This document shows, in pieces, positions 129-38,195 of a DNA stretch of 54,692 nt. Below the pieces are notes generated by a model, which was given only the letters and a program-made list of their open reading frames with translations, made no database searches and had not been told where the DNA came from. Position 1 is the stretch's first letter. Each line of letters opens with the position of its first letter. This stretch comes from Puniceicoccales bacterium (GTDB taxonomy: Bacteria; Verrucomicrobiota; Verrucomicrobiia; Opitutales; UBA953). The stretch spans positions 1 to 54,692 of the forward strand of contig JAITVQ010000161.1 of assembly GCA_031285745.1 (NCBI GenBank), written 5' to 3'. Position numbers and translations under genes: made by a program.

Positions 129-965
129 TCAGGCGACCGCCCGGCGACCCTTTTGTGGAAATTTGAGCGTAGCGAGGTCGGAAGGTGCCAGCGCAGGGTG
201 AAACACCAGCAACTCGCCCGAGTCCTTGGCACTTCCATTCTTCGCCAGGCTGTACCGGATGGACATGGGCTGCGCCGGTAATCCGGAGAACACTTTCCGG
301 CATTCCGGAGAGTCATCGCAGGTAAGTAGCCACTGTCCCTTCAATTTATCCAACCGACGCCGGACACGGGCCATGTCAGCGGCAGTAAAGGCCGCGTAGG
401 CGGTATCCCCGCAGTTGACGTAGGGCGGGTCGAAGAAAAAGAACGCGTCCGGAGCGTCATAGAATTCGACTACCTTTTCCCAGTCCCCGCACTCGATGGT
501 TACCCGCTCCAGGCGGACGGCCAGTTGGTCGATAAGTGGGACCAGTCGATCAGCGTCCCACCCGTGGAAGTCGCGTCGGTCCCGCCCCCAGGTCTGACCC
601 TGTGAACCAAAAGAGCACACTTTCAGGAGGTACCAGCGGGCGGCTCGCTGCAAGTCCGTGAAGCCCGGATTGCGGAGCAGGTCGAGGAAGTTGGCCCGTG
701 CGTTGATATAGCCCCGCAATTCCCCGATGAGCGCCTCTTTATGGAAGCGCACGTAACGGTAGAAAGCGACCATATCACCATCGGCGTCGTTGATTACTTC
801 CAGATGTGCGGGAGATTTGGCCAGGAGGACGGCACATCCCCCGCAAAACGGTTCCCCATAGACCCGATGCTCCGGGATATGCGGGAGAATGTGTTTGAGG
901 AGGCGGCGCTTGCCACCGGGATGGGCAAAAGCCGGTTTAAATGGCAGGATGTTTTTGTCGGGCAT
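129..965 (-). CDS. Dam-type (D12 class) N6-adenine DNA methyltransferase
   Basis: 278-aa ORF with an FCGG SAM-binding-like motif near the N-terminus (EPFCGGCAV) and the catalytic DPPY motif (FFFDPPYVN). This motif order is typical of Dam-family enzymes. Confidence 0.85.
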   Translation of the reverse strand: MPDKNILPFKPAFAHPGGKRRLLKHILPHIPEHRVYGEPFCGGCAVLLAKSPAHLEVINDADGDMVAFYRYVRFHKEALIGELRGYINARANFLDLLRNPGFTDLQRAARWYLLKVCSFGSQGQTWGRDRRDFHGWDADRLVPLIDQLAVRLERVTIECGDWEKVVEFYDAPDAFFFFDPPYVNCGDTAYAAFTAADMARVRRRLDKLKGQWLLTCDDSPECRKVFSGLPAQPMSIRYSLAKNGSAKDSGELLVFHPALAPSDLATLKFPQKGRRAVA

Positions 966-11660: not shown

Positions 11661-12230
11661 TTAATTTTTCTGTTCGGCGACCAACTCGGCAGCCCGGTCA
11701 CAAAGACGGCGCTCCAGTTCGTTCATGTCGGGCAGTGCCCGTGGATCAGGGTCGTGGATAGTGAATTCCCGCAAGTGGTAGTAGAGGATCAGGTGACCCG
11801 ATACGCTGGATGCCAGGAACTCTTTTTCGGTTTTGGGATTAGTCCATTTGAAGAGTCCCGGAATCTGGCACTCGCGGGCGCGGATACCGTAGACGGACTC
11901 ATGGACAGGGATGGCCAGGTTGTCGGCCTCCTGGGCCTTGACGGTGCCACTCTTGACTTTCAGGGCGATGGCCGGATGGGCGATTGTGACAGTGGCTCCC
12001 TCATCAGTGGCTCCCGCCAGGGCAGTCACCCTGCGAATGCCCGCCCAGAAATGCTGCCGGGGCCAGCCTTGCTTGTTGGGGGAATCCTGCTCCCGGGTGG
12101 CGAAGTGAGCACGAAGGGCTACCTCCACCATTTTTCCCAGGCGGAATAGAATGGGACGCGGATGGGTCACCCCTTGGAGGATTCTCTCCAGCGAGGGAGT
12201 CGCCTCGTCATAAAACCACAGGTTGATCAT
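11661..12230 (-). CDS. Virion morphogenesis protein (Mu gpG / P2 S-like)
   Basis: 189 aa. The N-terminal pattern LERILQGV...LFRLGKMVEVALRAHFATREQDSPNKQGWP fits the remembered gpG-family pattern (mr.iG..l......F......G..W.p). Confidence 0.45.
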   Translation of the reverse strand: MINLWFYDEATPSLERILQGVTHPRPILFRLGKMVEVALRAHFATREQDSPNKQGWPRQHFWAGIRRVTALAGATDEGATVTIAHPAIALKVKSGTVKAQEADNLAIPVHESVYGIRARECQIPGLFKWTNPKTEKEFLASSVSGHLILYYHLREFTIHDPDPRALPDMNELERRLCDRAAELVAEQKN

Positions 12231-13030
12231 GCGACATCCTCCAGGCTGGCGGTGTCTCCGGAGAGGTTGACTCGGTCCCCAAAAAAATCCGCGAGCAGTT
12301 CGCGGGCCTGCGGCGAGAGTCCTGCGGTGCTGGCTTTCAACTCCTTGTTGAAGCCTTCCTCGGCGGGGGTGATCTTTTCACCCTTGGCGATCACGCCCAT
12401 ATCCTCGGCCTCGCTCCGGTGGATGTCCTCGATGCCCATACCGGAGCCGTAGTCGAACGGCGGCCAAGGCCGGCCAAAGCGGGACAGCTTGATCCAGACG
12501 GGATCGTCCTTGCGGGCAATCATCCGGCCATCGTAAAGCTGCCCGCCTGCCGCTTGCCAACGGGCGACCCAGTCAAGGCGCTCCTTGATGCGTGATTCGA
12601 CCCGGAGAAATTCCTGGCATGGGTATTCATCCAGGAGTTCGGGGTCTTGTTCCATTTTCCAGCGTCCGTAGGAATTGGCGTCCTCGACCTGGAAATCATA
12701 AATTAGCTGCAGGCGGCGGATGGATGAAATGTCCTCCAGGCTGCCCTTGGTTCCATCCGCGATCGCGCCCAGTTCCCGGCGCATGTCGGCCACGAATTTG
12801 CTCCGGTCCATGAAAGGACCGGTGCCGTCCGGCTTCACCGCCTGCAGCAGCTTGGTCCGCATGCTGTCCAGGACGCGGATTTTTTCGATACCGGAACTCC
12901 AAAGCGACCGCTCCCGGATGGCCAGCGGCACCCCCTCCCACTCGGCACTACGCAGTGGAGACGGCACCAGGACTTTACCCTGGAGCCGTTCGACGGCCTG
13001 CTGAAATGGTATGACGGTGGGTTTTGGCAT
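12227..13030 (-). CDS. MuF-like (gp30-like) minor head protein
   Basis: 267 aa. The N-terminus PFQQAVERLQGKVLVPSPLRSAEWEGVPLAIRERSLWSSGIEKIRVLDSMRTKL resembles the Phage_Mu_F domain start. Confidence 0.45.
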   Translation of the reverse strand: MPKPTVIPFQQAVERLQGKVLVPSPLRSAEWEGVPLAIRERSLWSSGIEKIRVLDSMRTKLLQAVKPDGTGPFMDRSKFVADMRRELGAIADGTKGSLEDISSIRRLQLIYDFQVEDANSYGRWKMEQDPELLDEYPCQEFLRVESRIKERLDWVARWQAAGGQLYDGRMIARKDDPVWIKLSRFGRPWPPFDYGSGMGIEDIHRSEAEDMGVIAKGEKITPAEEGFNKELKASTAGLSPQARELLADFFGDRVNLSGDTASLEDVA

Positions 13031-13033
13031 GGA

Positions 13034-13486
13034 TTAAATGCCCGATTGTTTTTTTCGGGAAAAGATACGGGGGCGGCTCCGGACGTGGGGACTCCCGCCT
13101 CCGGGCATTTGCTCCGGCCCCAGTTCATCGGGAACTTCGAGGGCGAATTTACAGGACGCTACATCGGCAAGCAGCTTGATGGCATCGTCATATTCCTTCT
13201 CGCGGGCGGGCGTGTTCAGCGCCGGAACCGGCAAGCGGCTGAGCAACCGGAAACGGATGATCGCCAGGGCCGTCCCGACCAGTTGGTCGGGAATAGTCCC
13301 GGCAGGACCAAGCTTGTTTTTCCGACAAGCTTTCACCCGGCCCCGGATTTCATTCACGGTAAACTCGACGACCTCTTTCAACGGATCAGGTTGGCGAGGG
13401 TCTTTCGCCGCACTCTCCACCGCGTCCATTTCCGGACCGGTGAGACGGGAGGCAACGCGTTCGACTGTGAGTGAAATCCAGGCCAT
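13034..13486 (-). CDS. DUF1320-like (Mu gp36-like) head-tail connector protein
   Basis: 150 aa, directly downstream of the capsid gene. It has the helical pattern typical of this family. Confidence 0.45.
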   Translation of the reverse strand: MAWISLTVERVASRLTGPEMDAVESAAKDPRQPDPLKEVVEFTVNEIRGRVKACRKNKLGPAGTIPDQLVGTALAIIRFRLLSRLPVPALNTPAREKEYDDAIKLLADVASCKFALEVPDELGPEQMPGGGSPHVRSRPRIFSRKKQSGI

Positions 13487-14997: not shown

Positions 14998-16041
14998 TCA
15001 GGCGGGGTTTTCCGCTTCAGCCTGCTCGTAGGCTTGCCCGAGGGTGAGCTTCGGATTGTTTTTCCGTAGCTCCTGGGCACGATTGGAGATACGGGAGGCA
15101 CGGGCTTCCTCCGATTTGTCCTTGGCATCTCCGGCCACGACTTCGGGAGTCTTGGCGTTGCGGCGATTGGTCAGCGGATTTCTCGGATCGTCCTTCTTTT
15201 CGGGAAGCATGCCGAAGAGTGTCCGGGCGGTGTCCCGATTCTTCACATACAGGTCGGACATCTCCGTGCGTTTTTTCTCGTCGGTGATGCCGTGTTTTTC
15301 GCAGAGCGCCAAAGCTTCGGCTTTGCGATTTTCCACGACCTCGGCTTCCAGGGTCTTGAGCGACCCGGTTTTCTCGGCAATGGCGGCGAGGATTTCGTCG
15401 ACAGTGGCAGTTTCCGGCAGCCCAAGGGCAGCCGCTATCTTTTTGAGTTCGTCCATGGATGGATTGGTTTGAGTTGTTGTTGGGTCAGATTCAGCGTTGG
15501 AAAGCGGTTGGAGGGTTTTCATATTGGGCCGATTGGTCACGGCGGCCCCGACCAGGCGCGTGGGCCGGAAACGGTTATCGCCGAGCCATTCGAGCATGGA
15601 GCCGGTCGGGAATTCCGGGGACAGGAACCGATACTCCCCGCCCTGGACTTCGTCCTGGGCCGAGTTGGTCCAGCGGATCGGCGCATACACGCCTCCCTCC
15701 CGCAATACCGGTGCGGAGAGCCAGCCAGCCGCCCGCGTGGGCTTGTCGGCATCGTGGGACAGATGGTCGTAATCGACGAGAAGGTCGCCACCCGGGAAGC
15801 TGTTCACCATCGCCTGCATGGCGGCATTGTCCACGACCTGGATGATGACGAGGTCGCCATCCTTGTCGGCCCGGGAGCGGAGCGATTTCTGGGCAGCAGG
15901 CGGCAGGGCGCGGATGTTGGTGACGGTGGAATACTCGCCGGGGGCGACGACGTGGAAGTGCCCGTCTTTCGGAAGTTGGAAATCCCGGTTCAGCAGGGCG
16001 ACCGCAGTCCCGATGATGCGATGGTGGATGGTACGGCTCAT
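14998..16041 (-). CDS. Mu gpI-like prohead protease with a C-terminal scaffold region
   Basis: 347 aa. The N-terminal half (FQLPKDGHFHVVAPGEY...LLVDYDHLSHD...AAGWL...YRFLSPEF) matches the remembered Mu-like prophage I protein signature. The C-terminal half is charged and helical. The start forms an ATGA overlap with the portal stop. Confidence 0.75.
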   Translation of the reverse strand: MSRTIHHRIIGTAVALLNRDFQLPKDGHFHVVAPGEYSTVTNIRALPPAAQKSLRSRADKDGDLVIIQVVDNAAMQAMVNSFPGGDLLVDYDHLSHDADKPTRAAGWLSAPVLREGGVYAPIRWTNSAQDEVQGGEYRFLSPEFPTGSMLEWLGDNRFRPTRLVGAAVTNRPNMKTLQPLSNAESDPTTTQTNPSMDELKKIAAALGLPETATVDEILAAIAEKTGSLKTLEAEVVENRKAEALALCEKHGITDEKKRTEMSDLYVKNRDTARTLFGMLPEKKDDPRNPLTNRRNAKTPEVVAGDAKDKSEEARASRISNRAQELRKNNPKLTLGQAYEQAEAENPA

Positions 16042-18179
16042 GACTTGACTTTTTTGGTGGTTCGCGCAGATTTGGTTTTAACAGGAGGCCGTTCCGGACG
16101 TTTGCCCAAGGCGTTGCAAAGCGCATGCAGCCCCTCTCTGTTTTTCATTTTGTAGAGTGATGTGGGGACGAGTTGTTTTTTTCCGGTGCGGACTTCCTCG
16201 TAGAGATAATAGGTGCCGCCGATCTTGGCTTTATATTCGATGGTCTGGAGCCCGCGTCCCGTTTGCCCTCCCAGACGGATATCGGCCTTGGCAACGATTT
16301 CCGGGATGCGCTGGATGTCGGCCTTGGTGATGGGGACTTGGCCGCGCAGGGTTTCGGTGGCCGAGCCATGCCGCTTATCGATGTGCCGGATTTTGTCGGC
16401 ATCGACTGCCCGCTCAAAGCCCTCGAACTTGAGTCCGGTGGCCTTTTCGAGTCGGGCGGCCTCAGTGCTGTCAACCTTGGCAATCGATTGGGTGCCCTTG
16501 AAATTCTTGTCGGCGAGCGCCTGCTCATAGAAGGTGCCCAGTGCTTGCTTGCTGTCCTCCGACTTAGGGGATGAGGCGCTGGCCCCGTCGCCGGTGAATT
16601 GGCCTCCCTCGGCAGACCCGGCAGGCTGGCGATCCTGGTCGGTGTTTTTGAGTGCAGGCAGGTCGCTGTCCTTAATGCCTTGAGCAACGGCATCGAGCAT
16701 CCCGCGCTCCAGGACGGCAGCGGTGGCATCGGTGCCAAACATGGCCGCGAGATCAGGAACATCGGCCTCGGTGGCAGTGCCTGCCTCCAGCTTGGCCAGA
16801 AACTTTTCGACGAGATCCCGGGCAGGCTCGAAATCCTTGGCCATGGCCCGGAGTAATTCACTCGATGACTCCGGATCGGCGGTCTCGCGATTGAGCAGGC
16901 CCGGTAGACCGGGTGATGGCACCGGAGCCGTGGCCGGCTTCAAGGTAACGATCCAGCCGGTCTTTTCCTTCACCTGGTCGGGATCGACCTGATAGCCAGC
17001 CTGCGAGAGCGAGGCAACCTGGGTGACAGCGGCCCCCGAGTCAGTTTCCTCATTCGCGGCCAGTTCAAAATAGGCGACCTTGGGTTGGCCGGGGAATTCA
17101 GCGTCCAGGATACTGTCGACCAGTTGCCGGTTGAAGGTTTCGGAAATGCGGCGAGCCTCACTGGAGGCGATCTGGTCGAATACTTTCTGGTGGGCACTCC
17201 CGGCCAGTGTGCCGCTACCCGGTGCCGTCAGCATGGTCAATTTCCCTCCGGTCCCGGCGAGGACCAGCTTCTCCGTGAGGAAGTCGAGCCGATCGAGAAA
17301 GGTCCGGGCGTCATGCGGCGGAGTGTTGGGTTGCCAGTTCGATCCGTTGGGCAGGTAGCCACTCCCGCCCTCGGCGATCTTGCGGGCGGCTTCCTCATAG
17401 GCGGCCTCGTCGTCTTCGGCGACATCCGGGGGGCCAATCACGACACCGCTCGGAATGTAGACGCTTTCGTTGAAGGCATCCCAGTCTTTCTCACTGAAGG
17501 AACTGCGGACATGCTTGATCAGTCCGAAGCGATTGATCGGCCTGCGCGATTCCCGGTAGAGAAAATTCTTTGGATGCATATCCATCTCCGAACCGAGTTC
17601 CTCGTAGCCGCAACTGCGGGCGGTGGGATTATAGCGCCAGGCACCCTTGAAACCGTCACGGATCGCGTTCCATTGGTCGACGATCTCCAGGTGGTAAACA
17701 TCACCCCCGGCATCAAAATACTTTTCGCAATGGGCAAAGCCCCGGAAAGGAGCCATGGCCAGATGTTCGATTGCGTCGTAGAGATTATCGATCTTGGCCA
17801 GCTTCTCGCTGATGCAGGCGAACTGCTCATCAACCAGGGTTTTGTCGGCATCCTTTTCGGTGCCGACATTATGGTTCATTTCCAAGATGCGACCGAGGCG
17901 GGCTTCCAGCAGGCCAATCATGTCCGGGTCCGTCTGCTCGACATAATAATAGGTCCACTGCAAGTCGGACATCCGACCCCGCTCATAATCTTCCAGAAGC
18001 GAGATGGCCTTGGCAATGGTCAGGCCCCGGAGCGGATTGAATTGCTCACGCCAGGTGTTGAGTTTCAGGCGGACTCCCATCGACATGGCCCCCGAGGGCG
18101 CAGCAGTCAAACGAATGGGCCTGCCGTGGGCATCATACCAGGTGTCCGGCTTCTTGTTTTTCAAAGGAGTCTTTTTCAT
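16038..18179 (-). CDS. Portal protein (DUF935 / Mu gp29-like) with an extra ~200-aa C-terminal extension
   Basis: 713 aa, about 200 aa longer than the ~512-aa Mu portal. It lies directly downstream of TerL with overlapping start and stop. The extension (aa ~510-713) has a low-complexity linker with GGQF, followed by a domain with DKIRHIDKRHG. Confidence 0.75.
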   Translation of the reverse strand: MKKTPLKNKKPDTWYDAHGRPIRLTAAPSGAMSMGVRLKLNTWREQFNPLRGLTIAKAISLLEDYERGRMSDLQWTYYYVEQTDPDMIGLLEARLGRILEMNHNVGTEKDADKTLVDEQFACISEKLAKIDNLYDAIEHLAMAPFRGFAHCEKYFDAGGDVYHLEIVDQWNAIRDGFKGAWRYNPTARSCGYEELGSEMDMHPKNFLYRESRRPINRFGLIKHVRSSFSEKDWDAFNESVYIPSGVVIGPPDVAEDDEAAYEEAARKIAEGGSGYLPNGSNWQPNTPPHDARTFLDRLDFLTEKLVLAGTGGKLTMLTAPGSGTLAGSAHQKVFDQIASSEARRISETFNRQLVDSILDAEFPGQPKVAYFELAANEETDSGAAVTQVASLSQAGYQVDPDQVKEKTGWIVTLKPATAPVPSPGLPGLLNRETADPESSSELLRAMAKDFEPARDLVEKFLAKLEAGTATEADVPDLAAMFGTDATAAVLERGMLDAVAQGIKDSDLPALKNTDQDRQPAGSAEGGQFTGDGASASSPKSEDSKQALGTFYEQALADKNFKGTQSIAKVDSTEAARLEKATGLKFEGFERAVDADKIRHIDKRHGSATETLRGQVPITKADIQRIPEIVAKADIRLGGQTGRGLQTIEYKAKIGGTYYLYEEVRTGKKQLVPTSLYKMKNREGLHALCNALGKRPERPPVKTKSARTTKKVKS

Positions 18180-19741
18180 GCGGCGGTCCTCCTGCGGGCT
18201 TCAGATCGACGGCTGCCCTCGGGTGGGGAAAATGGCCGGGGCCGGGTCGGCACACCCTTGTTGGTGAGCGCAAAATGGCATTGCTTGAGGGAATCAAAGA
18301 CGTCGCCGTGATTACCTTCGGCATCGGTAGCGTTGGAAAAACTGCCATTGTCACGCTTGACCAGGCGCATATCGTCAAACACCCACTTGTCCGGAGGCAA
18401 CGATGCCTTGCCCTCATCGTAGACGTTCACCAGTTCATTGCCCTGGTACTGCTTATAGCTCATATTCTGGCCGTGGTGGCGGATGACTTCGTTGGCAATA
18501 ATGAGGATGATTTTGACGAGCAGCCGCAGGGCCGCCTTGAGGATGGCCGCAAAATAACGCTCATTGCTGGCATCGACGGACATCATGCGCGGACCGCGTT
18601 TCATGACTGCCGAGCCACTCTTGATGACGAGCTTGATTCGATTCTTGGCGACTTCGGGATCGCTGGTTTTCCATCGCCAGATCAGACGCGGGACAAAATG
18701 GCCATTGACCATCTGCGCTGCCGACAGGACGGACGGGTTGCTCTTTTCCTTGTCCGTCGTGGCAATGTCGAAGCCCAACGCCCAAGGCGCATCGGGTGTA
18801 AGATGGTCGGTCCAGTTGGCGGGTAATTCTGCCTTATCATTAATCGTCGTACAGCGCCTGGCCTCGGGATGGTTCTGCGCCAGCGCAAGGGACACACGGG
18901 AAAGTGCGGCCATGCCACTTGTCGCAAGGATCATGGCATAGTTGCGATCCCAGGACTCTTTGTCGACCGCCAGCGCCCGGTGCTGATCCGGCGTCAGGAC
19001 CTCGCCGCTTTCATAATGGTAGAGCTTGGCCCCGGCTGCCTCGGCATCCCACGCGTCAACGTGGTGGACCATGATCCCGGCCTCGCTGCGATACCAATGG
19101 CCCTCCGCCTTTACCTCTTCCAGTGCCTCCAGCGTTTCCTGGGAAGGCAGCATCAATTCGTGGGAAAAGTGCGAATCGTCTTTCGGCGGCGTGGTGGCCA
19201 GCAAGCAGGTGAAGTCCGGATCACTGGAAAAGATCGGCTCCACCGCATCCCACATATCCTGGAAATCTGGCACCCAGGCGAACTCGTCAAAAAACACGTC
19301 ACCAGTCCAACCACGGGCCGTGGCCGGATTCGGGGCGATTACCTGCAGGCGGGAAAAGGAAGTCCGGTCGTGCCAGAGTTTGACCTTGAGGCGGCCTTTC
19401 TCGAAAATTTCTGCAAAGTCATCGTCGGTGCCGTCGCGGACATTGGTCGTGATCGGCATTCCTTGGGCGTGATTGCGGAGCAGGTCCCGGAATAGCTTGG
19501 CATTCGTTTCGACAATTTCTCCACCGACCAGGAGCGAAGCGGAGACAAATGTGATCCGATGATCCCGTCTGGCGGCCATCCGGCGCAGGCTGCGGACCCC
19601 CAACGAAGTGGTTTTCCCACCCTGGCGTCGCCACTTCTTTATCTGCATGCGCAGGCCCCGCTCATATTCCGTTTCGCGGGCATAAGGCCGGAGGCGGAAG
19701 AGAGGCCGGGGCACGGCAGTGACTGGAGCTTCAGAGGACAA
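18176..19741 (-). CDS. Terminase large subunit (Mu gp28-like)
   Basis: 521 aa. LRPYARE...WRRQGGKTTS is a Walker A-like motif preceded by the LxPYQ-like motif seen in Mu-type TerL. Its position fits. The start is apparently TTG at 19741, because the first ATG at 19648 would remove the conserved N-terminal motif. Confidence 0.8.
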   Translation of the reverse strand: MSSEAPVTAVPRPLFRLRPYARETEYERGLRMQIKKWRRQGGKTTSLGVRSLRRMAARRDHRITFVSASLLVGGEIVETNAKLFRDLLRNHAQGMPITTNVRDGTDDDFAEIFEKGRLKVKLWHDRTSFSRLQVIAPNPATARGWTGDVFFDEFAWVPDFQDMWDAVEPIFSSDPDFTCLLATTPPKDDSHFSHELMLPSQETLEALEEVKAEGHWYRSEAGIMVHHVDAWDAEAAGAKLYHYESGEVLTPDQHRALAVDKESWDRNYAMILATSGMAALSRVSLALAQNHPEARRCTTINDKAELPANWTDHLTPDAPWALGFDIATTDKEKSNPSVLSAAQMVNGHFVPRLIWRWKTSDPEVAKNRIKLVIKSGSAVMKRGPRMMSVDASNERYFAAILKAALRLLVKIILIIANEVIRHHGQNMSYKQYQGNELVNVYDEGKASLPPDKWVFDDMRLVKRDNGSFSNATDAEGNHGDVFDSLKQCHFALTNKGVPTRPRPFSPPEGSRRSEARRRTAA

Positions 19742-23357: not shown

Positions 23358-24008
23358 TTACCACTTCACCGTCCAAACGGTGATCCGTGTTTTTTTATCG
23401 AGGCCGACCTTGGATTCCCTGACTTCCCATACTCGACCGGCTTTAAGCATTTCCACGAATTTCTCCTGGGAGATAACGGTGAGGCCAAGTTTCTCGGGGG
23501 TGGTTTCAGCCATGCTGTACGCGCTTTGTCTTTCACCAGCCGGAGTCGTGATTGTTTTGCTTTTTGGGTCTACTTTTACCAGAAGCTTCTCCCCCGGAGT
23601 GTCGCCGACATTCCATTTTTTGGGAGATAGTGTTTGCAGAGCTATCACAGTCGGAGCTCCCCAAACCTTCCCACTATAGTCTCGTTTGTATTGCTCGACA
23701 ATGAACTCAGTGTCGGAATTTTTCTGTATGACTTTTTCGGCAGTTATGCATTGCGCACCCCAAATTGTTTTTATCGTGACGACGTTTCCTTTCGCATCAA
23801 GGTACTCGCGGCCCTGAATTTCCTGAAAAAGCTCCAGCAACTTTTCTCGCGATTCGGACGCTCCAGGCCGACCTACCTTGGAAACCTCAAAGACTTTTTG
23901 TTGTGGTTTATCATCAGCCTGGGCGAGCGCGACACAAGGAAGCGCGATCAGTGCGAATAAAGAGAGAATCGAAATTTTAATGAAGCGAACTGAGAAGTGA
24001 TTTTTCAT
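23358..24008 (-). CDS. Secreted hypothetical protein (moron candidate)
   Basis: 216 aa with a clear signal peptide (ILSLFALIALPCVALA-QADD). GC content is visibly lower than in the flanking phage DNA. Confidence 0.6.
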   Translation of the reverse strand: MKNHFSVRFIKISILSLFALIALPCVALAQADDKPQQKVFEVSKVGRPGASESREKLLELFQEIQGREYLDAKGNVVTIKTIWGAQCITAEKVIQKNSDTEFIVEQYKRDYSGKVWGAPTVIALQTLSPKKWNVGDTPGEKLLVKVDPKSKTITTPAGERQSAYSMAETTPEKLGLTVISQEKFVEMLKAGRVWEVRESKVGLDKKTRITVWTVKW

Positions 24009-24147
24009 ATCAACGGAGTTTTTTGTGACGCTGCAATTTGTCCTTCGGACGGCAAGGGCTAAATAATCCCCCTCGGTTAATTTGCCTGACGTTCAACATG
24101 GAATAACAGTCATCGTTCGATTACCTTCTCGTTATGCCAAAAAAAAC

Positions 24148-24393
24148 ATGATTCCGTTTGATCCTTGGGACCTCGCACTCCGCAAGGCTGGAAAAAATCC
24201 AAAGCGACTGGAGACATTATCGATGGCGGCCATTCGCCAAATTAAGGACCTGCTCGGCTATTGGAAAGAAGAGGGCATGGAACCGCCTGCGCTTAATCCT
24301 CCGCCGACATGGTCGGACGAGGATGAGGTGCCCAGGCAGATGCACCTGCAACTGGAAAACTTCTCCGGATCCCTGACGATTTCGGCAGAGTAA
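24148..24393 (+). CDS. Small hypothetical protein
   Basis: 81 aa from the ATG at 24148 (MIPFDPWDLALRK...). It is convergent with the repressor gene. The ORF track begins earlier, at 24082. Confidence 0.4.
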   Translation: MIPFDPWDLALRKAGKNPKRLETLSMAAIRQIKDLLGYWKEEGMEPPALNPPPTWSDEDEVPRQMHLQLENFSGSLTISAE

Positions 24394-24397
24394 GCGG

Positions 24398-25003
24398 CTA
24401 GACCGCTTTATTGTCTTTCTTGTCCTGGTTATCGCGTTGCGCCGCGATAGCCTTTCTTCGTGCTTCCGTCCGCTCTCGGGCGCGCTTCAACTCGCCCAGG
24501 GGCAGACGGGTGGATGGCTGTTTTTTGGGTGGTTCCTCTGACTCAGATTCGGATGATACATTTGAGCTGTCTTCATACGTGGGAGAATCTTCGTTGAGTG
24601 CATAATTAGCCGCTCCTCTTGAAATCAAACCCGCATCGTGCGGTTTTGATTTTTGAGAGAAATTGAGAGACTCTAATAAATAAATAATTTTATCTAACTT
24701 AAGTGAAATTTCATGAAAAGGATCGTTTGATTTTTTTCCGATAGCTAAAGGAAGATCAGCTGAGTCATCTGATAAAACATTTTCTCCTAAATTAAAAAAT
24801 AACGCAAGTCTCGATAACATGCGTTGTTGTGGATTATTCACACCTCTACACCATCCATTTATTGTTCCTGAGCTAACGTCCATCTGACGAGCTAACTCAT
24901 ATTGGGACAGTCCTCGTTCTTTCATCAAGAGAGTTAGTTTTTCGGAAAAAAGCATAAGAAAAGATTTAAGCGAAATTGAGAGATTCCGCTTGATTTCACT
25001 CAA
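24398..25003 (-). CDS. XRE/Cro-CI family HTH repressor (Mu c-like role), without a peptidase S24 domain
   Basis: LTLLMKERGLSQYELARQMDVSSGTINGWCRG is a canonical XRE HTH. The gene is divergent from the early operon. The true start may be the ATG at 24955 (MLFSEKL...), which would leave the 24974-25015 inverted repeat intergenic. Confidence 0.8.
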   Translation of the reverse strand: MSEIKRNLSISLKSFLMLFSEKLTLLMKERGLSQYELARQMDVSSGTINGWCRGVNNPQQRMLSRLALFFNLGENVLSDDSADLPLAIGKKSNDPFHEISLKLDKIIYLLESLNFSQKSKPHDAGLISRGAANYALNEDSPTYEDSSNVSSESESEEPPKKQPSTRLPLGELKRARERTEARRKAIAAQRDNQDKKDNKAV

Positions 25004-25015
25004 AACCTCTCAATT
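24974..25015. promoter_or_regulatory. Operator candidate in the repressor / early-operon divergent region
   Basis: AATTGAGAG at 24974-24982 and CTCTCAATT at 25007-25015 are perfect 9-bp inverted repeats 24 bp apart. They lie between the divergent repressor and Ner-like genes. Confidence 0.4.
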
Positions 25016-25041
25016 GTTGTTTTTCAAGTTACCCGAAACCT

Positions 25042-25362
25042 ATGAATACACCACAAAAAAAGAACCGCGTGGTCCGGTTCCCGGGGATTATGGATGCAGC
25101 CCGGAAATTACGCGTCTCCCGAATCCACCTCTATCTGGTTCTTTCAGGCCAGCGCGAGAGTCGCAGCCTGAAAACTCGCTACCAGAAACTAGCAGCCACC
25201 TCGACTGGGTCGGGGTCGTCACGGACCCAGTTTGCACGAGTTCCTGCAAAATCAAATTTATTGCAGCTTGCACAGCGGGCATCTGCTCGATCTCGACCCG
25301 TTTCCAGCGCCCCGCCTTCCCAGGGTAAAAAGCATCCACGGCTTCGCGGTAAGGCACCATGA
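25042..25362 (+). CDS. Ner-like small HTH protein, first gene of the early operon
   Basis: The N-terminal 50 aa (VRFPGIMDAARKLRVSRIHLYLVLSGQRESRSLKTRYQKL) look like a small phage HTH regulator. The C-terminal half is low complexity and is overlapped by an antisense ORF, so the 3' end is uncertain. Confidence 0.5.
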   Translation: MNTPQKKNRVVRFPGIMDAARKLRVSRIHLYLVLSGQRESRSLKTRYQKLAATSTGSGSSRTQFARVPAKSNLLQLAQRASARSRPVSSAPPSQGKKHPRLRGKAP

Positions 25363-25434
25363 GCAAATCGCGCCATGCCAATAACTGAATATGTGCCTCG
25401 GGCAAATTCATGCCACCAACCAATCTGAAAAACC

Positions 25435-25638
25435 ATGAACTCTACAATCCAAAACAACCCTTTTCTCCACATCGGCAACCACCTCATCAAGGTCGGCAAT
25501 ATCGCAGGGGTATTCCTGAATCCCAACCTCCCCGAGGAATCACAGTGCGTTGTGTATCTTGAATCCGGCTATGCGCCACTCCACCTGCCTGTCGAGGCAT
25601 TTGAGCAAATCCAGAAGCGCCTCCACATCGTCGACTAA
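25435..25638 (+). CDS. Small hypothetical early protein
   Basis: 67-aa ORF in the early operon orientation. Confidence 0.4.
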   Translation: MNSTIQNNPFLHIGNHLIKVGNIAGVFLNPNLPEESQCVVYLESGYAPLHLPVEAFEQIQKRLHIVD

Positions 25639-25684
25639 CCCCGCCGCCTTACCCCCTAGACCTTTTTTCTCAACCACTCACCAC

Positions 25685-26587
25685 ATGAAAGCATCCTCAA
25701 AAAACAAATCAACCGCGCTGGAAATTGTCGTGGAGGCTCCTGCCCAAGGTTCCTGGGAACGGGCCGCCAAATGGGCCAATGCCGTCCGCAGTTTTACCCG
25801 GTGTACCGTTGCGGCTCAGGTAATGACCGGTCTCGAACTACTCGCCCTTCACCGGGAGCATGAAATCACTCAAGGAGGTGATCGAAAATCAAACCCGCAC
25901 AATGCGGTTTTGAACTGGCCCGAGTTGATCCGTCAACACTGCGACATTTCCGACGATACTGGCTACCGCTGGATGGATATGGCCCAGCACGCAGGCGACC
26001 GGATCAAACTACTCCACGGCATCGATATCATCGGGACCCCCTTGGGCAATTTCACAGCCAAGCAACTCGGCCAGATCGAGACGGCAGTGCAGGAACTGAC
26101 CGATGGGAAAACGCAGACGGCCTTTCTGCGGGAATGCCGCGTCCTGCGGAAACTCTCGCCCAAGGAACTCGGCTGGAGCGAGCAGGACATCACCCGCATC
26201 GAGGACATGCGCATCCTGGCCAAGGCTGCCAAGGGGCAACTGACCGAGGACGCGGAATACAGCGTCGGGCAGTTGAGCGAGGAAGCCCGGCAGGAATTCA
26301 TCGCCGCGCTGCCCGCGACTATCGCCGCCTGCGAGGCGGGTGAACTGCGCCCCGCCCGCGCCTGGGCAGGACTCTTCGGCAAAGCCTCGACCGATGGCAA
26401 GAAACGGGCCGAGACCAACCACGACGAGAATCTCTACAACGGCCTGGCCAAGCTGAAGACATCGCTCCCGCACTGGTACGATATGAGCGCCAGGGGACGC
26501 ACGCGGTACATCCAGACGTTTGTCGAAATCATCCAAAACATGCCCGACGAACTGCGCATCAAGATCAGCGAAGCCCTCAAGAAATAA
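25685..26587 (+). CDS. Hypothetical early protein (DUF3102-like?)
   Basis: Start at the ATG at 25685 (MKASSKNK...), 300 aa. The pattern GLELLALHREH...WPELIRQHCDISDDTGYRWMDMAQ is reminiscent of DUF3102 phage proteins. Confidence 0.5.
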   Translation: MKASSKNKSTALEIVVEAPAQGSWERAAKWANAVRSFTRCTVAAQVMTGLELLALHREHEITQGGDRKSNPHNAVLNWPELIRQHCDISDDTGYRWMDMAQHAGDRIKLLHGIDIIGTPLGNFTAKQLGQIETAVQELTDGKTQTAFLRECRVLRKLSPKELGWSEQDITRIEDMRILAKAAKGQLTEDAEYSVGQLSEEARQEFIAALPATIAACEAGELRPARAWAGLFGKASTDGKKRAETNHDENLYNGLAKLKTSLPHWYDMSARGRTRYIQTFVEIIQNMPDELRIKISEALKK

Positions 26588-26608: not shown

Positions 26609-28432
26609 GTGCTGCCGAACATGCCCACTGCCGAACAAGTCCAAACCCTCGCCCAGCGCGGAATCCATGAGGCGGAAATCGCCCACATGCTGGACTGTTC
26701 GCCCGCCACCGTGCGCCGCCTCCTCAAGCCGAGGACGGCCCCGGTGCAGCGGCAGGGGAGGCCAGCGGTGGCCACGTTGACCGACGAGCAGGCCACCGAG
26801 GTCGCCAGCACGGCACTGCGCATGGCGGCAAACACAGATGATACCGTGCCAACGCGGATGGCCTTCCGGCTTTTTGCCGCCGAGTCGCCTAACTGCCCCG
26901 AGGACCTCCGTAAATTCATCCTGGCGCGGGAGCGGTTGCCCGAGGCCATGGTGCGGCAGGTGCGCTCCCGGATCACGCCGGAGCAACTGGAAATGCACCG
27001 GGGCCGCAAGCGATCCAAGTTGCACGTCTTCACGGTGCAGCGCTCGTTGACCCGCCGCGATGAGGAGGGCCACGATCACGACCTGCGAGCGATGGACCTG
27101 ATCACGGCAGACGACGCCCACTTCAACGTCGGGTTCTATTATCCCTGTGACGACGTCCGCATCCCCGGCGTCGAGAAATTTGGCGTGCGGGCCGCCCGGG
27201 CGCAAAATCTGGTCTTTGCCGATATCGCCACCGGGCGCATTATCAGCCAGGCGATCATTGCCCGCTACTCGGACGCCTACAACCAGCGCGACATCCGCTG
27301 GGCCATGATGCGCCTCCTGCGCGATCACGGCGTCCCGCGCTTCGGTTTCTATTTTGAACGCGGTGCCTGGGCATCGCGGGAATTATCCTACGCCTGCGAT
27401 CACATCGGCTCGCCTATCCGCCATGCCTACAGCGCCAAGGGCAAGTCGCTCATCGAGCACAAATTCAACGAGCATCAGCGGGTGATGTCGGCAAAATTGC
27501 GGGTCAACTTCGGACGCACGCGGGGCGAGTTTGACTGGGCAGGCAAGGACTGGTGCGCAGTCCGTGAGGGCAAGGTGCATCCCAGGGAACTCGGTTACCT
27601 GCCCGTCGAGGAATTCATGCAGGTGGTGGATGAAAGCTGGTCCTTCCTGAATGAAATCCCCATGCACGGCCAACTCTATAAAGGCATCCCCGACGAAACC
27701 TGGGAACGCCACCTGGCCGAGGATGAACCCGCCCGCGCTGCCACGGCAGCCGATCTCTGGCAGTTTACGCCGGAGCGCCATGAGGCAACCATCCGGGGCG
27801 GGCAGGTGACCGCGAAGTGCTCCGACTCCGGGATTGTCTACTATTTCACTGCACCCTGGTTTGCCGCCCTGGGCAACGGTTACAAGGTGACCGTTTGCTT
27901 CGACCCGAGCGATCCGGAGCGTGCCGCCATCATCAACCGCGAAATCGGAGCCCGAGCCAAGGTGCGCGGGCACGTCTGCAGCCATGCGCCGGAACTCGCC
28001 GCGCAGTGGAACGATGCGCAGATGTCCCAGGGGCTGCGGTTCGGGGAGTTGATCGGCGTCGCGGAATTCAACGAGCGCTCGCCCTTCATCAATGAGGACT
28101 GGAAGTCGCTGCGCACAACCCTGAAAAAGCGGAGCGAATACTACCGATACTCCCGGATGCTCTACCGCCAACTGGTCCCAGGCCGCCGTCGCGGGGCTTA
28201 CGCGGACGAATGGCGCAACGGCAAGGGCGATGCCTCGCGTATGGAAGTCGGCACCACCGCTCCGGTCGAAATCACCAGCAGCAGCCGGATCACGACGGCC
28301 CCGGCCAATCCAACCACCGTGCGTGGCCTCGGCCTGCACGATATCCCGCGCATCGATCGCGAGTCCGTCGCGGTGCCGTCGCAGGGTGATCGCAGGCCAA
28401 CCGTAGCCGAGGAGCTTTTCGGCAAATTCTAA
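26609..28432 (+). CDS. Mu A-like DDE transposase
   Basis: 607 aa. It has an N-terminal HTH (IAHMLDCSPATVRRLL). Candidate DDE residues lie in AMDLITADD, LVFADIATGRI and FYFERGAW. The gene is followed directly by a MuB-like ATPase. The start is GTG at 26609 or ATG at 26621. Confidence 0.75.
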   Translation: MLPNMPTAEQVQTLAQRGIHEAEIAHMLDCSPATVRRLLKPRTAPVQRQGRPAVATLTDEQATEVASTALRMAANTDDTVPTRMAFRLFAAESPNCPEDLRKFILARERLPEAMVRQVRSRITPEQLEMHRGRKRSKLHVFTVQRSLTRRDEEGHDHDLRAMDLITADDAHFNVGFYYPCDDVRIPGVEKFGVRAARAQNLVFADIATGRIISQAIIARYSDAYNQRDIRWAMMRLLRDHGVPRFGFYFERGAWASRELSYACDHIGSPIRHAYSAKGKSLIEHKFNEHQRVMSAKLRVNFGRTRGEFDWAGKDWCAVREGKVHPRELGYLPVEEFMQVVDESWSFLNEIPMHGQLYKGIPDETWERHLAEDEPARAATAADLWQFTPERHEATIRGGQVTAKCSDSGIVYYFTAPWFAALGNGYKVTVCFDPSDPERAAIINREIGARAKVRGHVCSHAPELAAQWNDAQMSQGLRFGELIGVAEFNERSPFINEDWKSLRTTLKKRSEYYRYSRMLYRQLVPGRRRGAYADEWRNGKGDASRMEVGTTAPVEITSSSRITTAPANPTTVRGLGLHDIPRIDRESVAVPSQGDRRPTVAEELFGKF

Positions 28433-28509: not shown

Positions 28510-29526
28510 ATGAAAGCTACCGACCCTGGCATTGTCAATGCCGCAATCATCTCCGAGGAGTTGGATCACTTGATCGCTCGCGTTGAGCGTCATCAACACA
28601 ACCTCGGACTCAACGATACGAAGTTTGTGGCGCGATATTCCCGCCACCTGAAAACGGTCGACTCCTGGTCGCGGACGTTGAAACGCCGCGACGCCGAGCG
28701 CCTCACAAAAAACAACATCCCGAAATGGACCGAGACGCTTCGCAAGCTGGTCGCGGAAATCGACGGGGCCAGCGAGATGGAGGTTGTCTACGAAAGCCTG
28801 CCCATCCTGCGCTGCGCCGAGCAGCTTTACGAACGGCTGCAGGGAGCCAATAATGATCGCCGGGTCGCCTGGCTGATCGGCCCTACCGGCATCGGGAAAA
28901 GCATGTCGATGCGTTACCTCAAGCGGCACAACCCCCGCGATACGGCCTATACCAAGGTGACCCCGCTGTGGAAGGATAACAAGCGCAGCATCGCCCGAGG
29001 ACTGGCCACCGCGATCGGAACCACGACCGAGCACGGCTCATCGGCCACGCTGGACCATGTAATCGAGCACTTGAAGGGAGCGCCACTTACACTGCTTCTG
29101 GATGAAGTCCACGAAGGCGGCGTGCTGCTTTTCAAGATTATCAAGACGCTGGTGGATGAGACGCCCGTGCGGGTGATGCTCTCGACCTGGCCGACCAGTT
29201 ACCGCCGCCTGGTCAACGGCAGCAGCGAAGCCCTCAGCGAGGCGCAACAACTGCTCGGGCGCTCACTGCGGCCCATCTATATGCAATGGGCGCAGGGTGT
29301 GCGCGAGGAGGACATCATTGCCTTCCTGAAGGTCGCCACGCCGGAGATCAATGACGAGCAACGCCCGCTCCTGGCCAAGCATGTAGCGCTCCCGGTCAAG
29401 AAGCTGGGGCTCCGCCTGCTCGCCGATGTGATCGAAGCCGCCCGTGCCCTGGCTGATGCCAAGGATGCAAACCTTACCCACGAAACCATCAAAACGGTCT
29501 TTGAGGAGATGGCCGCAGAAATTTAA
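28510..29526 (+). CDS. MuB-like AAA+ ATPase (transposition target DNA activator)
   Basis: 338 aa with Walker A GPTGIGKS and Walker B LLLDEVHE. It lies immediately downstream of the transposase. Confidence 0.8.
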   Translation: MKATDPGIVNAAIISEELDHLIARVERHQHNLGLNDTKFVARYSRHLKTVDSWSRTLKRRDAERLTKNNIPKWTETLRKLVAEIDGASEMEVVYESLPILRCAEQLYERLQGANNDRRVAWLIGPTGIGKSMSMRYLKRHNPRDTAYTKVTPLWKDNKRSIARGLATAIGTTTEHGSSATLDHVIEHLKGAPLTLLLDEVHEGGVLLFKIIKTLVDETPVRVMLSTWPTSYRRLVNGSSEALSEAQQLLGRSLRPIYMQWAQGVREEDIIAFLKVATPEINDEQRPLLAKHVALPVKKLGLRLLADVIEAARALADAKDANLTHETIKTVFEEMAAEI

Positions 29527-30936: not shown

Positions 30937-31250
30937 CCGCATTTAATCGTCCGACGCTGGAAGCGATCGTCGCCGCGTGCGCACGCGGGTTTGCCGTCAG
31001 CCATGATGCTTTGCTCGGGCGTAGCCGCCGAGGAAACCTTCCGGTGGCTCGTCACGCAATTGTTAGGCTCGCGAGGTACTACGGCTACACCCAACGCGAG
31101 ATCGGTGCGGAACTCAACCGCGTCGTCAGCACCATTACCAAGTCGGAGCAGGTGGCCGATGATCTGCACGACACCTCCGCTGCATGGCGCAACTGCTATG
31201 CCACTGCAGTGGCCACATTTCACACATCAACCAACACTACCCATGGCTAA
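30930..31250 (+). CDS. DnaA domain IV-like HTH protein
   Basis: 106 aa from the ATG at 30930. The sequence HDALLGRSRRGNLPVARHAIVRLARYYGYTQREIGAELNRVVSTITKSEQ resembles the DnaA C-terminal DNA-binding domain (R...a.aRqiamyL.r..t..s...IG..fgrdHsTV). Confidence 0.55.
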   Translation: MLTAFNRPTLEAIVAACARGFAVSHDALLGRSRRGNLPVARHAIVRLARYYGYTQREIGAELNRVVSTITKSEQVADDLHDTSAAWRNCYATAVATFHTSTNTTHG

Positions 31251-31776
31251 AGAAATCAAAATCAAGACCACAAATGAATTCATCGACACGGTCGACACTA
31301 TCGCCCAGAAGAGCGTGCAGCTCACGCAACTGGAAGCGACCCGCGATCGCGAAATCCAGGATGTGCAGGAGCGGCACAAGGGCGGCATTGAGCCGCTGAA
31401 AAAAGAAATCAAGGCATTGACCTCCACGGCGAAGATTTACGCCGAGGACCACCGCACCGAATTGTTCCATGATGCGAGCGCGAAGCGGGCCAAAACGGGT
31501 CTGTGCACCTACGGTCTGATCGTTAACCCGCCCGCGATCAAGAACCGGGGCAAGGCATTCCCGGACGAACGCTGCATCGACCTGCTCAAGCAGAATCGCC
31601 GCCTGGTACGTTTTGTCCGCACCCGGGAGGAAATCGACCGAGAGGCGTTGTTGGCCGCCTATAGCGACGGCGAAATCACCGCCGAGGACCTGGCTGATGT
31701 CGGCCTCAAGCGTGATCAGGATATCCGTTTCGACGTGAAGCCTCTCGTCGACAGCGGCGACAAGGCAACGGCGTAA
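31243..31776 (+). CDS. gam: Mu Gam-like host-nuclease inhibitor
   Basis: 177 aa from the ATG at 31243. It has an N-terminal coiled coil, and RFVRTREEIDREALL aligns with RFIRTKQEINKEAIL of Mu Gam. Confidence 0.8.
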   Translation: MAKEIKIKTTNEFIDTVDTIAQKSVQLTQLEATRDREIQDVQERHKGGIEPLKKEIKALTSTAKIYAEDHRTELFHDASAKRAKTGLCTYGLIVNPPAIKNRGKAFPDERCIDLLKQNRRLVRFVRTREEIDREALLAAYSDGEITAEDLADVGLKRDQDIRFDVKPLVDSGDKATA

Positions 31777-32204: not shown

Positions 32205-32444
32205 ATGGCCCGCACAGACCCTTGCTGCAAACTAATGTTCGCCTCCTTTGTTTCACCATGGCGGTGGACGTTCGCGATCCTTCCCAAGCGCACGCTGGAT
32301 GGGCGTCTGATCTGGCTTATGCCGATCATGACCTGCCGCGCCCATCTCCACGAATGGCTGACTCCACGAGTCAGAGACGAGTGGAATGTTTATTGGTTCC
32401 CGTGGGGATACCGCAAAACGAACCCGGAGGTGCGCCATGGCTGA
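32205..32444 (+). CDS. Small hypothetical protein
   Basis: 79 aa from the ATG at 32205. It overlaps the next gene by 8 nt. Weak support. Confidence 0.3.
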   Translation: MARTDPCCKLMFASFVSPWRWTFAILPKRTLDGRLIWLMPIMTCRAHLHEWLTPRVRDEWNVYWFPWGYRKTNPEVRHG

Positions 32445-33438
32445 GACAACCATTGGCTGGACCGTGACCGTGTTAGCTGATGGGACGATTCTCCCAGGCT
32501 ACACCTTTAACCCGTGGATCGGCTGCACCAAGGTTTCTGCAGGATGCGGATTCTGCTATGCCGAGGCGCAAGATCGTTTCCGCAATTGGACACCGGAGGG
32601 ATGGGGGCCAGGGAGACCGAGGCGACGTACCAACAAGCTATATTGGGAAAACCCACTCGTCTGGAATCAAGGAGCGAGAAATAAGGGCGTACGGTTAAAA
32701 GTATTCTGCGCCTCGCTTGCGGACTGGTTGGATCATGAGGTTCCGATCGAATGGCTGGCCGACTTGCTTGATCTTATTCGCCGGACGCCTCACCTCGACT
32801 GGTTATTGCTGACCAAGAGGCCGGAGAATTTCAAAGAGAGGATGTTGGCGGCACTCCGCCATAATGAAAACAATGGCGGTTCCGAAGAACTTCATGCGTG
32901 GCTTCTCGATTGGGTGACAGGAACCCCACCGTCAAACGTCTGGATCGGCACAACCGTCGAGAATCAAGAAATGGCAGATAAGCGCATCCCGGAGTTGTTA
33001 GATATTCCGGCTAAGGTTCATTTCTTGTCATGTGAACCAATGCTCGGCCACGTGACCATCTCCAATTTTGTCGAATCGGAGATATTAGCATACGCTGGAA
33101 GCTCCCCAGAGTTTGATTGCTGGCAGCCGCACCCATCAAAAAAATGGGTAATTTGCGGGGGAGCCAGTGGCACACAGGAGCAACCATTCTGCGTCGAGTT
33201 TGCCGATGATCTGCGGCGACAATGCAAGGCATCCGGTGTGCCGTTTTTCATGAAACAGATGGGGTCGAATCCCGTCACGTCCAACGCCAATCTATACGAT
33301 TGGCCCGATCACGTGGAGTTCATCGATTACAGCTCTTTCGCCGCTAGTGCAAAAATTCACCTCCGTCACCGCAAGGGCGAGGACATCAACGAATGGCCCG
33401 AGGAATTTCAAGTCCGAGAATTCCCCGCCGTTGCATAA
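32437..33438 (+). CDS. DUF5131 (phage Gp37/Gp68) family three-Cys-motif protein
   Basis: 333 aa from the ATG at 32437. The N-terminus TIGWT...NPWIGCTKVSAGCGFCYAE matches the family hallmark (IEWT..tWNPv.GC...S.GC..CYA). Confidence 0.75.
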   Translation: MAETTIGWTVTVLADGTILPGYTFNPWIGCTKVSAGCGFCYAEAQDRFRNWTPEGWGPGRPRRRTNKLYWENPLVWNQGARNKGVRLKVFCASLADWLDHEVPIEWLADLLDLIRRTPHLDWLLLTKRPENFKERMLAALRHNENNGGSEELHAWLLDWVTGTPPSNVWIGTTVENQEMADKRIPELLDIPAKVHFLSCEPMLGHVTISNFVESEILAYAGSSPEFDCWQPHPSKKWVICGGASGTQEQPFCVEFADDLRRQCKASGVPFFMKQMGSNPVTSNANLYDWPDHVEFIDYSSFAASAKIHLRHRKGEDINEWPEEFQVREFPAVA

Positions 33439-36183: not shown

Positions 36184-36716
36184 AGCATCCGCCTCCATTT
36201 TTTGCAAGAGCCTGGCATACTGCCAATCGGGACACATTGCTAAATCCACCAATTAAGGAGTGGGCGCGATTTTATCTAACTCGATCCACAGTATCTGTTG
36301 ATCCTTTTGCTAGAAATTCCAGTTTGGCAAACTGGACAAATGACCTGAATCCTGAAACAGCCGCTAACTTCCACATGGATGCTTTTGATTTTTTACTGCA
36401 TCTTAAAAAAGAAGGGGTGACTTGTGACCTTTGCATATTTGACCCTCCTTATTCACGTGCGCAGGTAAAGGAATGTTATGAGGGAGTTGGGCGTCATTTT
36501 GGGCAAGCCGATTCTCAAGGTTTTACAGGCAACTGGAAAAAGGAACGTGATGCCCTTGATTCGATCTTGGCGCCGGGCGGTGTGGTATTATCATTTGGCT
36601 GGAATTCATCGGGGATGACTTTGGCACGCGGATATACTCTTGAAAGCGTCCTCCTCGTTTGTCATGGAGGTGCCCATCATGACACCATTTGTATCGCAGA
36701 GAGAAAACAGTCGTGA
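36180..36716 (+). CDS. Small DNA (N6-adenine or N4-cytosine) methyltransferase-like protein
   Basis: 178 aa. The GTG start overlaps the dnaB stop (GTGA). VDPFARNS is motif I-like, FDPPY is catalytic motif IV, and LAPGGVVL is also present. Confidence 0.6.
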   Translation: MKHPPPFFARAWHTANRDTLLNPPIKEWARFYLTRSTVSVDPFARNSSLANWTNDLNPETAANFHMDAFDFLLHLKKEGVTCDLCIFDPPYSRAQVKECYEGVGRHFGQADSQGFTGNWKKERDALDSILAPGGVVLSFGWNSSGMTLARGYTLESVLLVCHGGAHHDTICIAERKQS

Positions 36717-36852
36717 CCGGCGCCGGGGCGACGGCGGCAAAATGAACCTCCCGCACGATGCGGGAGACTATTCGCGAGCCTATCGCAGCCACCCCGCGAT
36801 GATCCAGCGGGCATCCCGCGCCTCAAATTTGCCAGCCCCCTCGCTTTATCCC

Positions 36853-36998
36853 ATACCCTTATCACCATTCAGATCATGACCCTTTATAGCATTCTGACCC
36901 CAGATTCAGCCCCAGCCCCACGATCCTTGATTCTATGGGCATTTAAAGGTTCCTTGAATTTATTTAACCCTTTTTAAGGTTTTCCTGCTCTCTCAACA
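36853..36998 (+). repeat. Right terminal inverted repeat and putative transposase-binding end (attR-like)
   Basis: ACCCTTA at 36855-36861, ACCCTTT at 36879-36885 and 36967-36973, TTTCCTGC at 36981-36988, and terminal CAACA ending at 36998. This mirrors the left end. Confidence 0.55.
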
Positions 36999-37022
36999 GG
37001 CGTCTTCTTCATCCTTCTCGGA

Positions 37023-37436: not shown

Positions 37437-37455
37437 TTTCTAATATATTTCAGTC

Positions 37456-37490
37456 AAAAACTCCCCGGTGAAAACCGGGGAGTTTTTTTT
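37456..37490 (+). terminator. Rho-independent terminator
   Basis: AAAAACTCCCCGG-TGAAAA-CCGGGGAGTTTTTTTT. Perfect 8-bp GC-rich stem (13 bp if the flanking A/T run also pairs), 6-nt loop and a T8 tract, 20 nt after the stop codon. Confidence 0.9.
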
Positions 37491-37967: not shown

Positions 37968-38195
37968 GATAGACCCAGTTTCTTAAACAAGACAAGGATA
38001 CAGCAAACGTCCAGACCCTGGCAAACTCTCCGAGAAGACCACATTCCCTGCCGAATATAGTATTTTCGATCAATATGAAGATGGCAGGCACGGCTTGCTT
38101 CCCCTGTAGACTATTAAAACCTTCCGACTCTATTGATTGGAGATATTATAAAATTAACTCGTACAGGCATTTTCTGCCCATATTCAATTTCCGAT

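Follow-up and report, generated by a model that had tools for sequence, protein, structure and literature searches.

The DNA analysed here, all of which is referred to as the window, is a stretch of 54,692 nucleotides from a Puniceicoccales bacterium (contig JAITVQ010000161.1). It is a Mu-like prophage region with the structural module on the minus strand, and the only public run containing the sequence is a termite gut metagenome; the host bacterium is uncultured. Within the structural module lies a portal gene whose product, at 713 amino acids (aa), joins a Mu-type portal to a C-terminal module of the PBECR3 family (PF18812). From its sequence this module is a predicted RNase that looks active. 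The terminase, portal and protease genes are in the order expected of a Mu-type portal, the same order is found in relatives, and the portal stop overlaps the protease start in the ATGA at 16038-16041 (GTCATGAGC).

The portal part of the protein was identified in two ways. Its match to Portal_Mu scores 114.9 bits against a cut-off of 23.9, and the portal-family profile can be aligned to gp29 of phage Mu (hhalign probability 98%, E 1e-13), Mu residues 2-407 corresponding to aa 12-422. The alignment with Mu gp29 stops near aa 422, and aa 416-512 fall within the stretch equivalent to the C-terminal part that is absent from the Mu virion portal (PMC11915804). An initial annotation, made from the letters of the DNA, had placed the end of the portal core near aa 500 and quoted an extra C-terminal module at 16125-16547. 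The extension is real, and the minus strand there translates in frame to aa 545-685 exactly as quoted. The boundary needs slight revision, with Portal_Mu ending at aa 408 and homology to short portals continuing to about aa 512.

The same annotation had likened the module to those of PBECR type, and this was borne out by the Pfam profile of PBECR3, by conserved His, Ser and Lys positions and by a model with a helix and four strands. The PBECR3 match of the full portal has an E-value of 8.8e-22 and 77.6 bits, and the isolated C-terminus scores 81.1 bits, both above the gathering cut-off of 30. The C-terminal 190 aa by themselves had zero matches in a word-indexed search, and an exhaustive search was required. 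With phmmer, aa 524-713 were compared with 1.84 billion representative proteins. This identified 1824 representative clusters of PBECR3 homologues at E ≤ 1e-3, including 502 at E ≤ 1e-10. Membership of the module in the PBECR3 sequence family is firm.

Conservation was assessed in an alignment of 150 sequences, comprising the portal and the matched regions of 149 homologues. Nearly all of the strongly conserved PBECR3 positions are retained in the portal module. Both histidines predicted to be catalytic proved to be conserved, H599 in 146/150 sequences and H604 in 149/150, and the module also keeps G605, E609, R612-G613-Q614, T618, D621, P626, D633, Y649, E661-E662, R664 and L670. In the last strand S674 is kept at a position that is Thr in 104 sequences and Ser in 43 (147/150 in all), and K677 is Lys in 131/150. 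The module thus carries K602-R-H604 and S674-L-Y-K677. The active site of PBECR domains has been described as a His with a C-terminal Ser/Thr configuration (Iyer et al. 2017, PMC5512222), and the signature of colicin D as [KH]K, Hxx[ED], [ST] and [TS]xxK (Zhang et al., PMC3482391). The His and S-x-x-K of the portal module fit with the PBECR configuration and with the colicin D [TS]xxK. A semi-conserved Lys ahead of the active-site His has been reported for PBECR3 in a 2026 preprint.

A structure of aa 540-713 was predicted with AlphaFold2 (AF2) from a 41-sequence alignment, with a predicted local distance difference test score (pLDDT) of 92.1 and a predicted template modelling score (pTM) of 0.77. 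In the model a helix at 594-604 bears H599 and H604. Four consecutive strands are modelled at 633-639, 645-653, 656-664 and 669-678, the last bearing S674 and K677. A trimmed model of aa 583-684 is in agreement (pLDDT 90); trimming gave the same top matches in the fold search and little gain. The helix-strand-helix piece at aa 540-567, ahead of the Pfam domain, is common to many PBECR3 homologues.

The best Foldseek matches of the trimmed model in the Protein Data Bank (PDB) are all RNase toxins, and all are weak (probability 0.5-1.0, E 0.03-0.3, TM-score about 0.5). These are BrnT (3u97; E 0.03, probability 1.0, TM-score 0.48/0.60), CdiA-CT of Klebsiella pneumoniae 342 (6cp9; probability 0.9, TM-score 0.50), HigB2 (5jaa) and CdiA-CT of Serratia marcescens (7m5f). 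Among predicted viral structures (BFVD) the module matches polyvalent proteins of phages whose annotation is nuclease or PolyVal ADP-ribosyltransferase, with E-values of 1e-11 to 3e-7. The models are consistent with membership of the BECR RNase class, a placement that structure comparison leaves short of proof.

Is the module a regular part of such portals? Alignment with DUF935 portals, suggested as a check in the initial annotation, confirmed that it is an extension. Among 969 homologues the closest portals, from Opitutaceae and other Verrucomicrobia, have 50-64% identity; they measure 520-580 aa, contain Portal_Mu only, align with the 713-aa portal to about aa 512 and then have a short basic tail. 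Close portals lack the domain, and the PBECR3 module is therefore an appended cassette. The terminase, portal and protease order is identical in locus L001, which has the domain, and in locus L002, which does not, with no gene between portal and protease. No anomaly of composition was seen in the cassette: its GC content (0.584) and GC at third codon positions (GC3; 0.687) are close to those of the rest of the gene (0.588 and 0.705). GC3 is low (0.44) at the C-terminal tail of the portal, where the start region of the protease overlaps.

The architecture of the best 149 of the 1824 representative PBECR3 homologues was surveyed. Solo domains account for 43 proteins of up to 260 aa, short fusions or fragments for 13 of 261-399 aa, mid-sized fusions for 52 of 400-1000 aa, and giant polyvalent-type proteins for 41 of more than 1000 aa. 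All 52 mid-sized proteins match PBECR3; nine of them also match Portal_Mu and one Phage_portal_3, and the remainder carry InPase, ART-PolyVal, DarA_N, DdrB-ParB, ArdC-N and similar domains. Fusion of PBECR to portal domains is already listed by Iyer et al. 2017 (PMC5512222), and 2H, Nudix and ART fusions to portals appear in later work from that group. The architecture is thus not new, having been in the literature since 2017 and in Pfam. Fusion to the portal had been called unusual in the initial annotation. It is indeed rare among close relatives, but it is stated in that 2017 paper and is found in 9-10 of the best 149 clusters. The portal-PBECR3 fusion is a minority state among close relatives, yet documented and recurrent.

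No other PBECR3 core that was found is more than 53% identical to that of the portal. In the other close portal-PBECR3 fusion (P0054, at 8001..10256 of L001) the segment of about aa 605-618 is missing, and with it E609, R612-G-Q614 and T618. That fusion may be a reduced or inactive variant, to judge by these residues.

Table 1. Features of the portal gene and of its surroundings in the window
Feature	Position	Strand	Basis or remark
Portal gene, 713 aa: Mu-type portal and C-terminal PBECR3 module	16038..18179	-	Open reading frame (ORF) list, Pfam, hhalign
Portal_Mu (PF06074/DUF935) core, aa 76-408	16956..17954	-	Pfam E 6.3e-33; PHROG 113 portal
Post-core region, aa 416-512, common to short portals	16644..16934	-	Alignment with short portals
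Low-complexity linker, aa 513-539	16563..16643	-	Short-portal homology stops here
Junction motif GGQFTGDG, inside linker	16584..16607	-	
N-terminal helix-strand-helix extension of module, aa 540-567	16479..16562	-	AF2 pLDDT >90; phmmer alignments often begin here
PBECR3 domain (PF18812), aa 568-681	16137..16478	-	Pfam; conservation in 150-sequence alignment
HIDKRH stretch	16368..16385	-	
Predicted active-site H599 and H604	16383..16385 and 16368..16370	-	Codons checked
SLYK stretch	16149..16160	-	
Predicted active-site S674 and K677	16158..16160 and 16149..16151	-	Codons checked
C-terminal helix and basic tail, aa 682-713	16041..16136	-	Basic tail also found at the end of short portals
Terminase large subunit, directly upstream of portal, overlapping	18176..19741	-	Pfam Terminase_6N E 7e-8
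Mu I-type head maturation protease/scaffold gene	14998..16041	-	Pfam Mu-like_Pro E 2e-31; PHROG 328
Divergent MuF-like minor head protein, 267 aa, short form, no cargo	12227..13030	-	hhalign
Mu Gam	30991..31776	+	
AAA protein (AAA_22 ATPase), MuB position	28510..29526	+	
Helix-turn-helix protein, 607 aa; possible MuA-like transposase	26609..28432	+	
Dam-type methylase	129..965		
DUF5131 protein and DnaB helicase, early region	32386..33438 and 34783..36183	+	

Elsewhere in the window GC content is clearly lower (0.49) at 24001..26000 and 36001..38000 than in the rest (0.52-0.63). The first of these separates the structural/lysis module from the early region, where the MuB-position and Gam-like genes are found. 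Such low-GC stretches may be module or prophage boundaries.

The portal was placed in the context of its lineage using 160 related loci, taken both from viral contigs and from genomes, in which the contigs are mostly from metagenome-assembled genomes of Verrucomicrobiota, Kiritimatiellia and Lentisphaerae. Tails after the core were measured with local hidden Markov models (HMMs) in 142 portals. They fall into three size classes, of about 0-30 aa, about 95-170 aa and at least 220 aa. Long tails are present in 19/142 portals, including the present one (298 aa). Besides the present portal, PBECR3 is found in two of these, PBECR1 in two, an ADP-ribosyltransferase in one and a portal-protease fusion in one, and there are several unknowns. 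The top portal matches include P0119 with PBECR1 and P0087 with LPD3. Judged by sequence, the ADP-ribosyltransferase exoenzyme tail is most likely that of L159, and the portal fused to a Mu-like protease is most likely that of L074. The portals of L131, L130 and L053 share one type of insertion, about 150 aa long and without annotation, that separates the core from the helical region.

The second carrier in this lineage is a MuF-like protein. MuF had been proposed to be the separate gene at 12227..13030; the gene has no Pfam match, though the profile of its family matches the N-terminal MuF domain of Mu gp30 (probability 93%, E 2.8e-7), in support of that proposal. The homologues (P0270-P0350) have a short form of about 265-290 aa, as here, and a long form of about 385-437 aa, which ends in PBECR3, PBECR1, PBECR2, LPD1 or an HExxH metallopeptidase-like module. 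PBECR3 was detected by HMM on 26 proteins of the lineage set that match the MuF-like profile. A MuF-like protein with a PBECR is also present in a cultured relative, Opitutus terrae (Oter_3423). The portals and MuF-like proteins of the lineage bear interchangeable C-terminal modules, among them PBECR1, PBECR3, ADP-ribosyltransferase and LPD.

Two simple ideas about these carriers were rejected. Cargo is not confined to one carrier or the other: in the 60 loci with both genes complete, both are long in 6, the portal only in 3, the MuF-like protein only in 18 and neither in 33 (Fisher p 0.14). Nor has PBECR3 moved recently from the MuF-like protein of the lineage to the portal, the core of the present portal having a median identity of about 47% to portal-borne cores and about 29% to cores borne by the MuF-like proteins.

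Where portal cargo follows the C-terminal helical region, it is preceded by G-[RKQL]-[FW]-[ATSV], usually within [HD]-x3-G-[RKQ]-F-[AT]-x-x-G-G. The present portal has GGQFTGDG, L013 has GRGKFTFAADQGGG and L094 has KTGRFAEGPGGSGG. Of the long portal tails 10/19 have this junction motif (shuffled mean 1.3, maximum 6), and of the short tails 0/95. Portal tails with the motif include those of the present portal, L013, L094, L033, L015, L089 and L001. It also stands ahead of PBECR1 on MuF-like proteins, and MuF-like tails with it include those of L094, L075, L012 and L109. A junction motif for portal or MuF cargo was not found described in the two key papers, on polyvalent proteins and on MuF toxins. 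New here are the two carriers of the lineage with interchangeable modules and the junction motif that marks portal cargo, and these parts might repay further work. It is possible, though we put it forward only tentatively, that the Mu-type portals and the MuF-like protein form a two-carrier polymorphic cargo system, in which cassettes are swapped behind a junction motif, [HD]-x3-G-[RKQ]-[FW]-[AT]-x-x-G-G, that would act as a recombination joint or as a site of cargo release by the head protease. The motif would then be comparable to the VENN-type junctions of CdiA toxins.

What might a portal do with such a module? We think it probable that the portal of this Mu-like prophage bears a PBECR3 domain that is freed in the capsid by the protease, is ejected with the DNA and cleaves RNA in the new host cell. 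The identity of the domain, its conserved residues, its place as an extension at the portal end and its recurrence are directly supported, and the later steps are inferred. Portal rings have twelve subunits, and each prohead would therefore take in twelve modules with its ring. The Mu I-type protease, whose gene comes next and overlaps that of the portal, would cut the portal after the core, as in phage Mu, and so free the module inside the capsid on a fragment of about 290-310 aa. The virion structure of Mu lacks the C-terminal 124 residues of gp29, an absence that its authors attribute to cleavage by protease I (PMC11915804). Removal of the Mu portal C-terminus by this protease makes release of the present module inside the capsid plausible.

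At infection the module would leave with the DNA, as is held for head-internal proteins of this kind (PMC5512222), and would cleave RNA in the newly infected cell. The RNA target could be tRNA, mRNA or a defence RNA. Iyer et al. suggested host or phage mRNA, or CRISPR RNAs, as targets (PMC5512222), and the colicin D-like signature would also fit tRNA. An immunity protein would not be needed, because the portal is a late protein, made when the cell is close to lysis. Polyvalent-type fusions (Iyer et al. 2017) are marked by an effector domain that is covalently joined to a head protein of the virion and whose gene is one of the late structural genes, and that is the arrangement found here.

Several observations weigh against release and delivery of an active RNase. 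Cleavage, packaging of the free domain and its ejection are inferred by analogy with Mu and other head-packaged effectors, not from the sequence. Two residues of the module depart from the family majority: position 651 is Ala, where 129/150 sequences have Lys, and position 590 is Arg, as in 39/150, where 105/150 have His. Foldseek found no match of the module model in the PDB at E ≤ 1e-3, the best being weak (E 0.03, TM-score about 0.5), and a sequence profile of the module had no PDB match at E ≤ 10. No experimental test of any PBECR domain was found in the searchable literature. Finally, not every PBECR is an enzyme, since the one at the C-terminus of Mu MuF is held to be inactive, and possibly RNA-binding, by Iyer et al. 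(PMC5512222). In our comparison the PBECR3 profile had no significant match to the Mu gp30 C-terminus (probability 4%), and the published PBECR at the end of Mu MuF was not confirmed.

Could the module instead stay on the portal and serve a non-catalytic or structural role in the head, binding nucleic acid or acting like a scaffold, as proposed for the PBECR of Mu MuF? The Mu precedent, the Ala at position 651 and the basic tail that follows the PBECR3 domain would all suit such a role. Yet nearly every polar residue conserved in the family is kept, including both His and the S-x-x-K, which is unexpected for a decayed enzyme, and most close portals function without such a domain, so that it is not needed for assembly. 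We regard a purely structural role as unlikely.

Somewhat less likely again is a polymorphic toxin system of the kind known from MuF toxins, in which the module, once released or delivered, would kill competing bacteria while an immunity protein guarded the lysogens. Polymorphic C-terminal modules on a constant head-protein carrier are indeed what is seen in MuF toxins (PMC5576092), and the element is a temperate Mu-like prophage, with Mu Gam, an AAA protein in the MuB position and structural genes. However, about 89% of MuF toxin genes precede a small candidate immunity ORF (PMC5576092). At the present locus no immunity candidate was found, as the initial annotation had noted, the start of the protease gene overlapping the portal stop. 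Likewise at L001, the other portal-PBECR3 locus that was studied closely, the protease is the next gene called. In the 8 positive loci no ORF was found to accompany PBECR3 within 10 kb; there were weak matches only, to one phage present twice. In addition, the carrier here is Portal_Mu and not MuF. The least likely of these alternatives is that the enzyme acts late in the producing cell, before or instead of packaging, to degrade host or early phage RNA as is described for RegB of T4, a phage RNase of the BECR fold (cited in PMC5512222): a late structural operon product would be present in the cytoplasm ahead of assembly, but repeated covalent fusion to portal or MuF-like proteins, with many unrelated enzymatic modules, points to targeting to the capsid rather than to the cytoplasm.

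Phages and conjugative elements commonly carry PBECR domains, yet these are known from computation only. As a discovery the present case is of modest value, since its architecture had been described before and is represented in Pfam. As a simple two-part protein it is an easy object with which to ask some direct questions. Is PBECR3 an RNase? What is cut? Can a portal deliver twelve copies of an enzyme? The answers would bear on how host defences are disarmed by phages during the first seconds after infection.

The module can be compared with several known systems. Like the BECR RNase toxins colicin D, CdiA-CT and BrnT-RelE, it is predicted to have a helix followed by a four-stranded sheet, with a helix His preceded two residues earlier by Lys and an S-x-x-K in the last strand that resembles the [TS]xxK of colicin D. 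It differs from them in having no detectable sequence similarity to solved structures, weak fold matches (E ≥ 0.03) and no immunity partner. The MuF polymorphic toxins (Jamet et al. 2017) are likewise found in temperate phages as a constant head protein with variable C-terminal enzymatic modules, and the MuF-like protein of the present lineage also bears PBECR modules. Here the carrier is the portal, no small immunity ORF lies downstream, and 12 copies per head are predicted, against the 1-2 reported for SPP1 gp7.

Phage Mu gp29 (gpH) has a homologous portal core, and a homologous protease gene lies in the same operon. At 512 aa, gp29 is without an enzymatic module. In Mu the MuF gene is directly after the portal; here it follows the capsid gene and a 150-aa gene (13034..13486), and the protease is directly after the portal. 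Closest of all are the PBECR-portal and PBECR-MuF fusions of Iyer, Burroughs, Anand, de Souza and Aravind (2017). The present fusion differs from these in its setting, a verrucomicrobial Mu-like prophage from a termite-gut metagenome, and in the Ala at a usually conserved Lys. It shares with them the same PBECR3 family, the late-gene virion context and the predicted active site of His and Ser/Thr.

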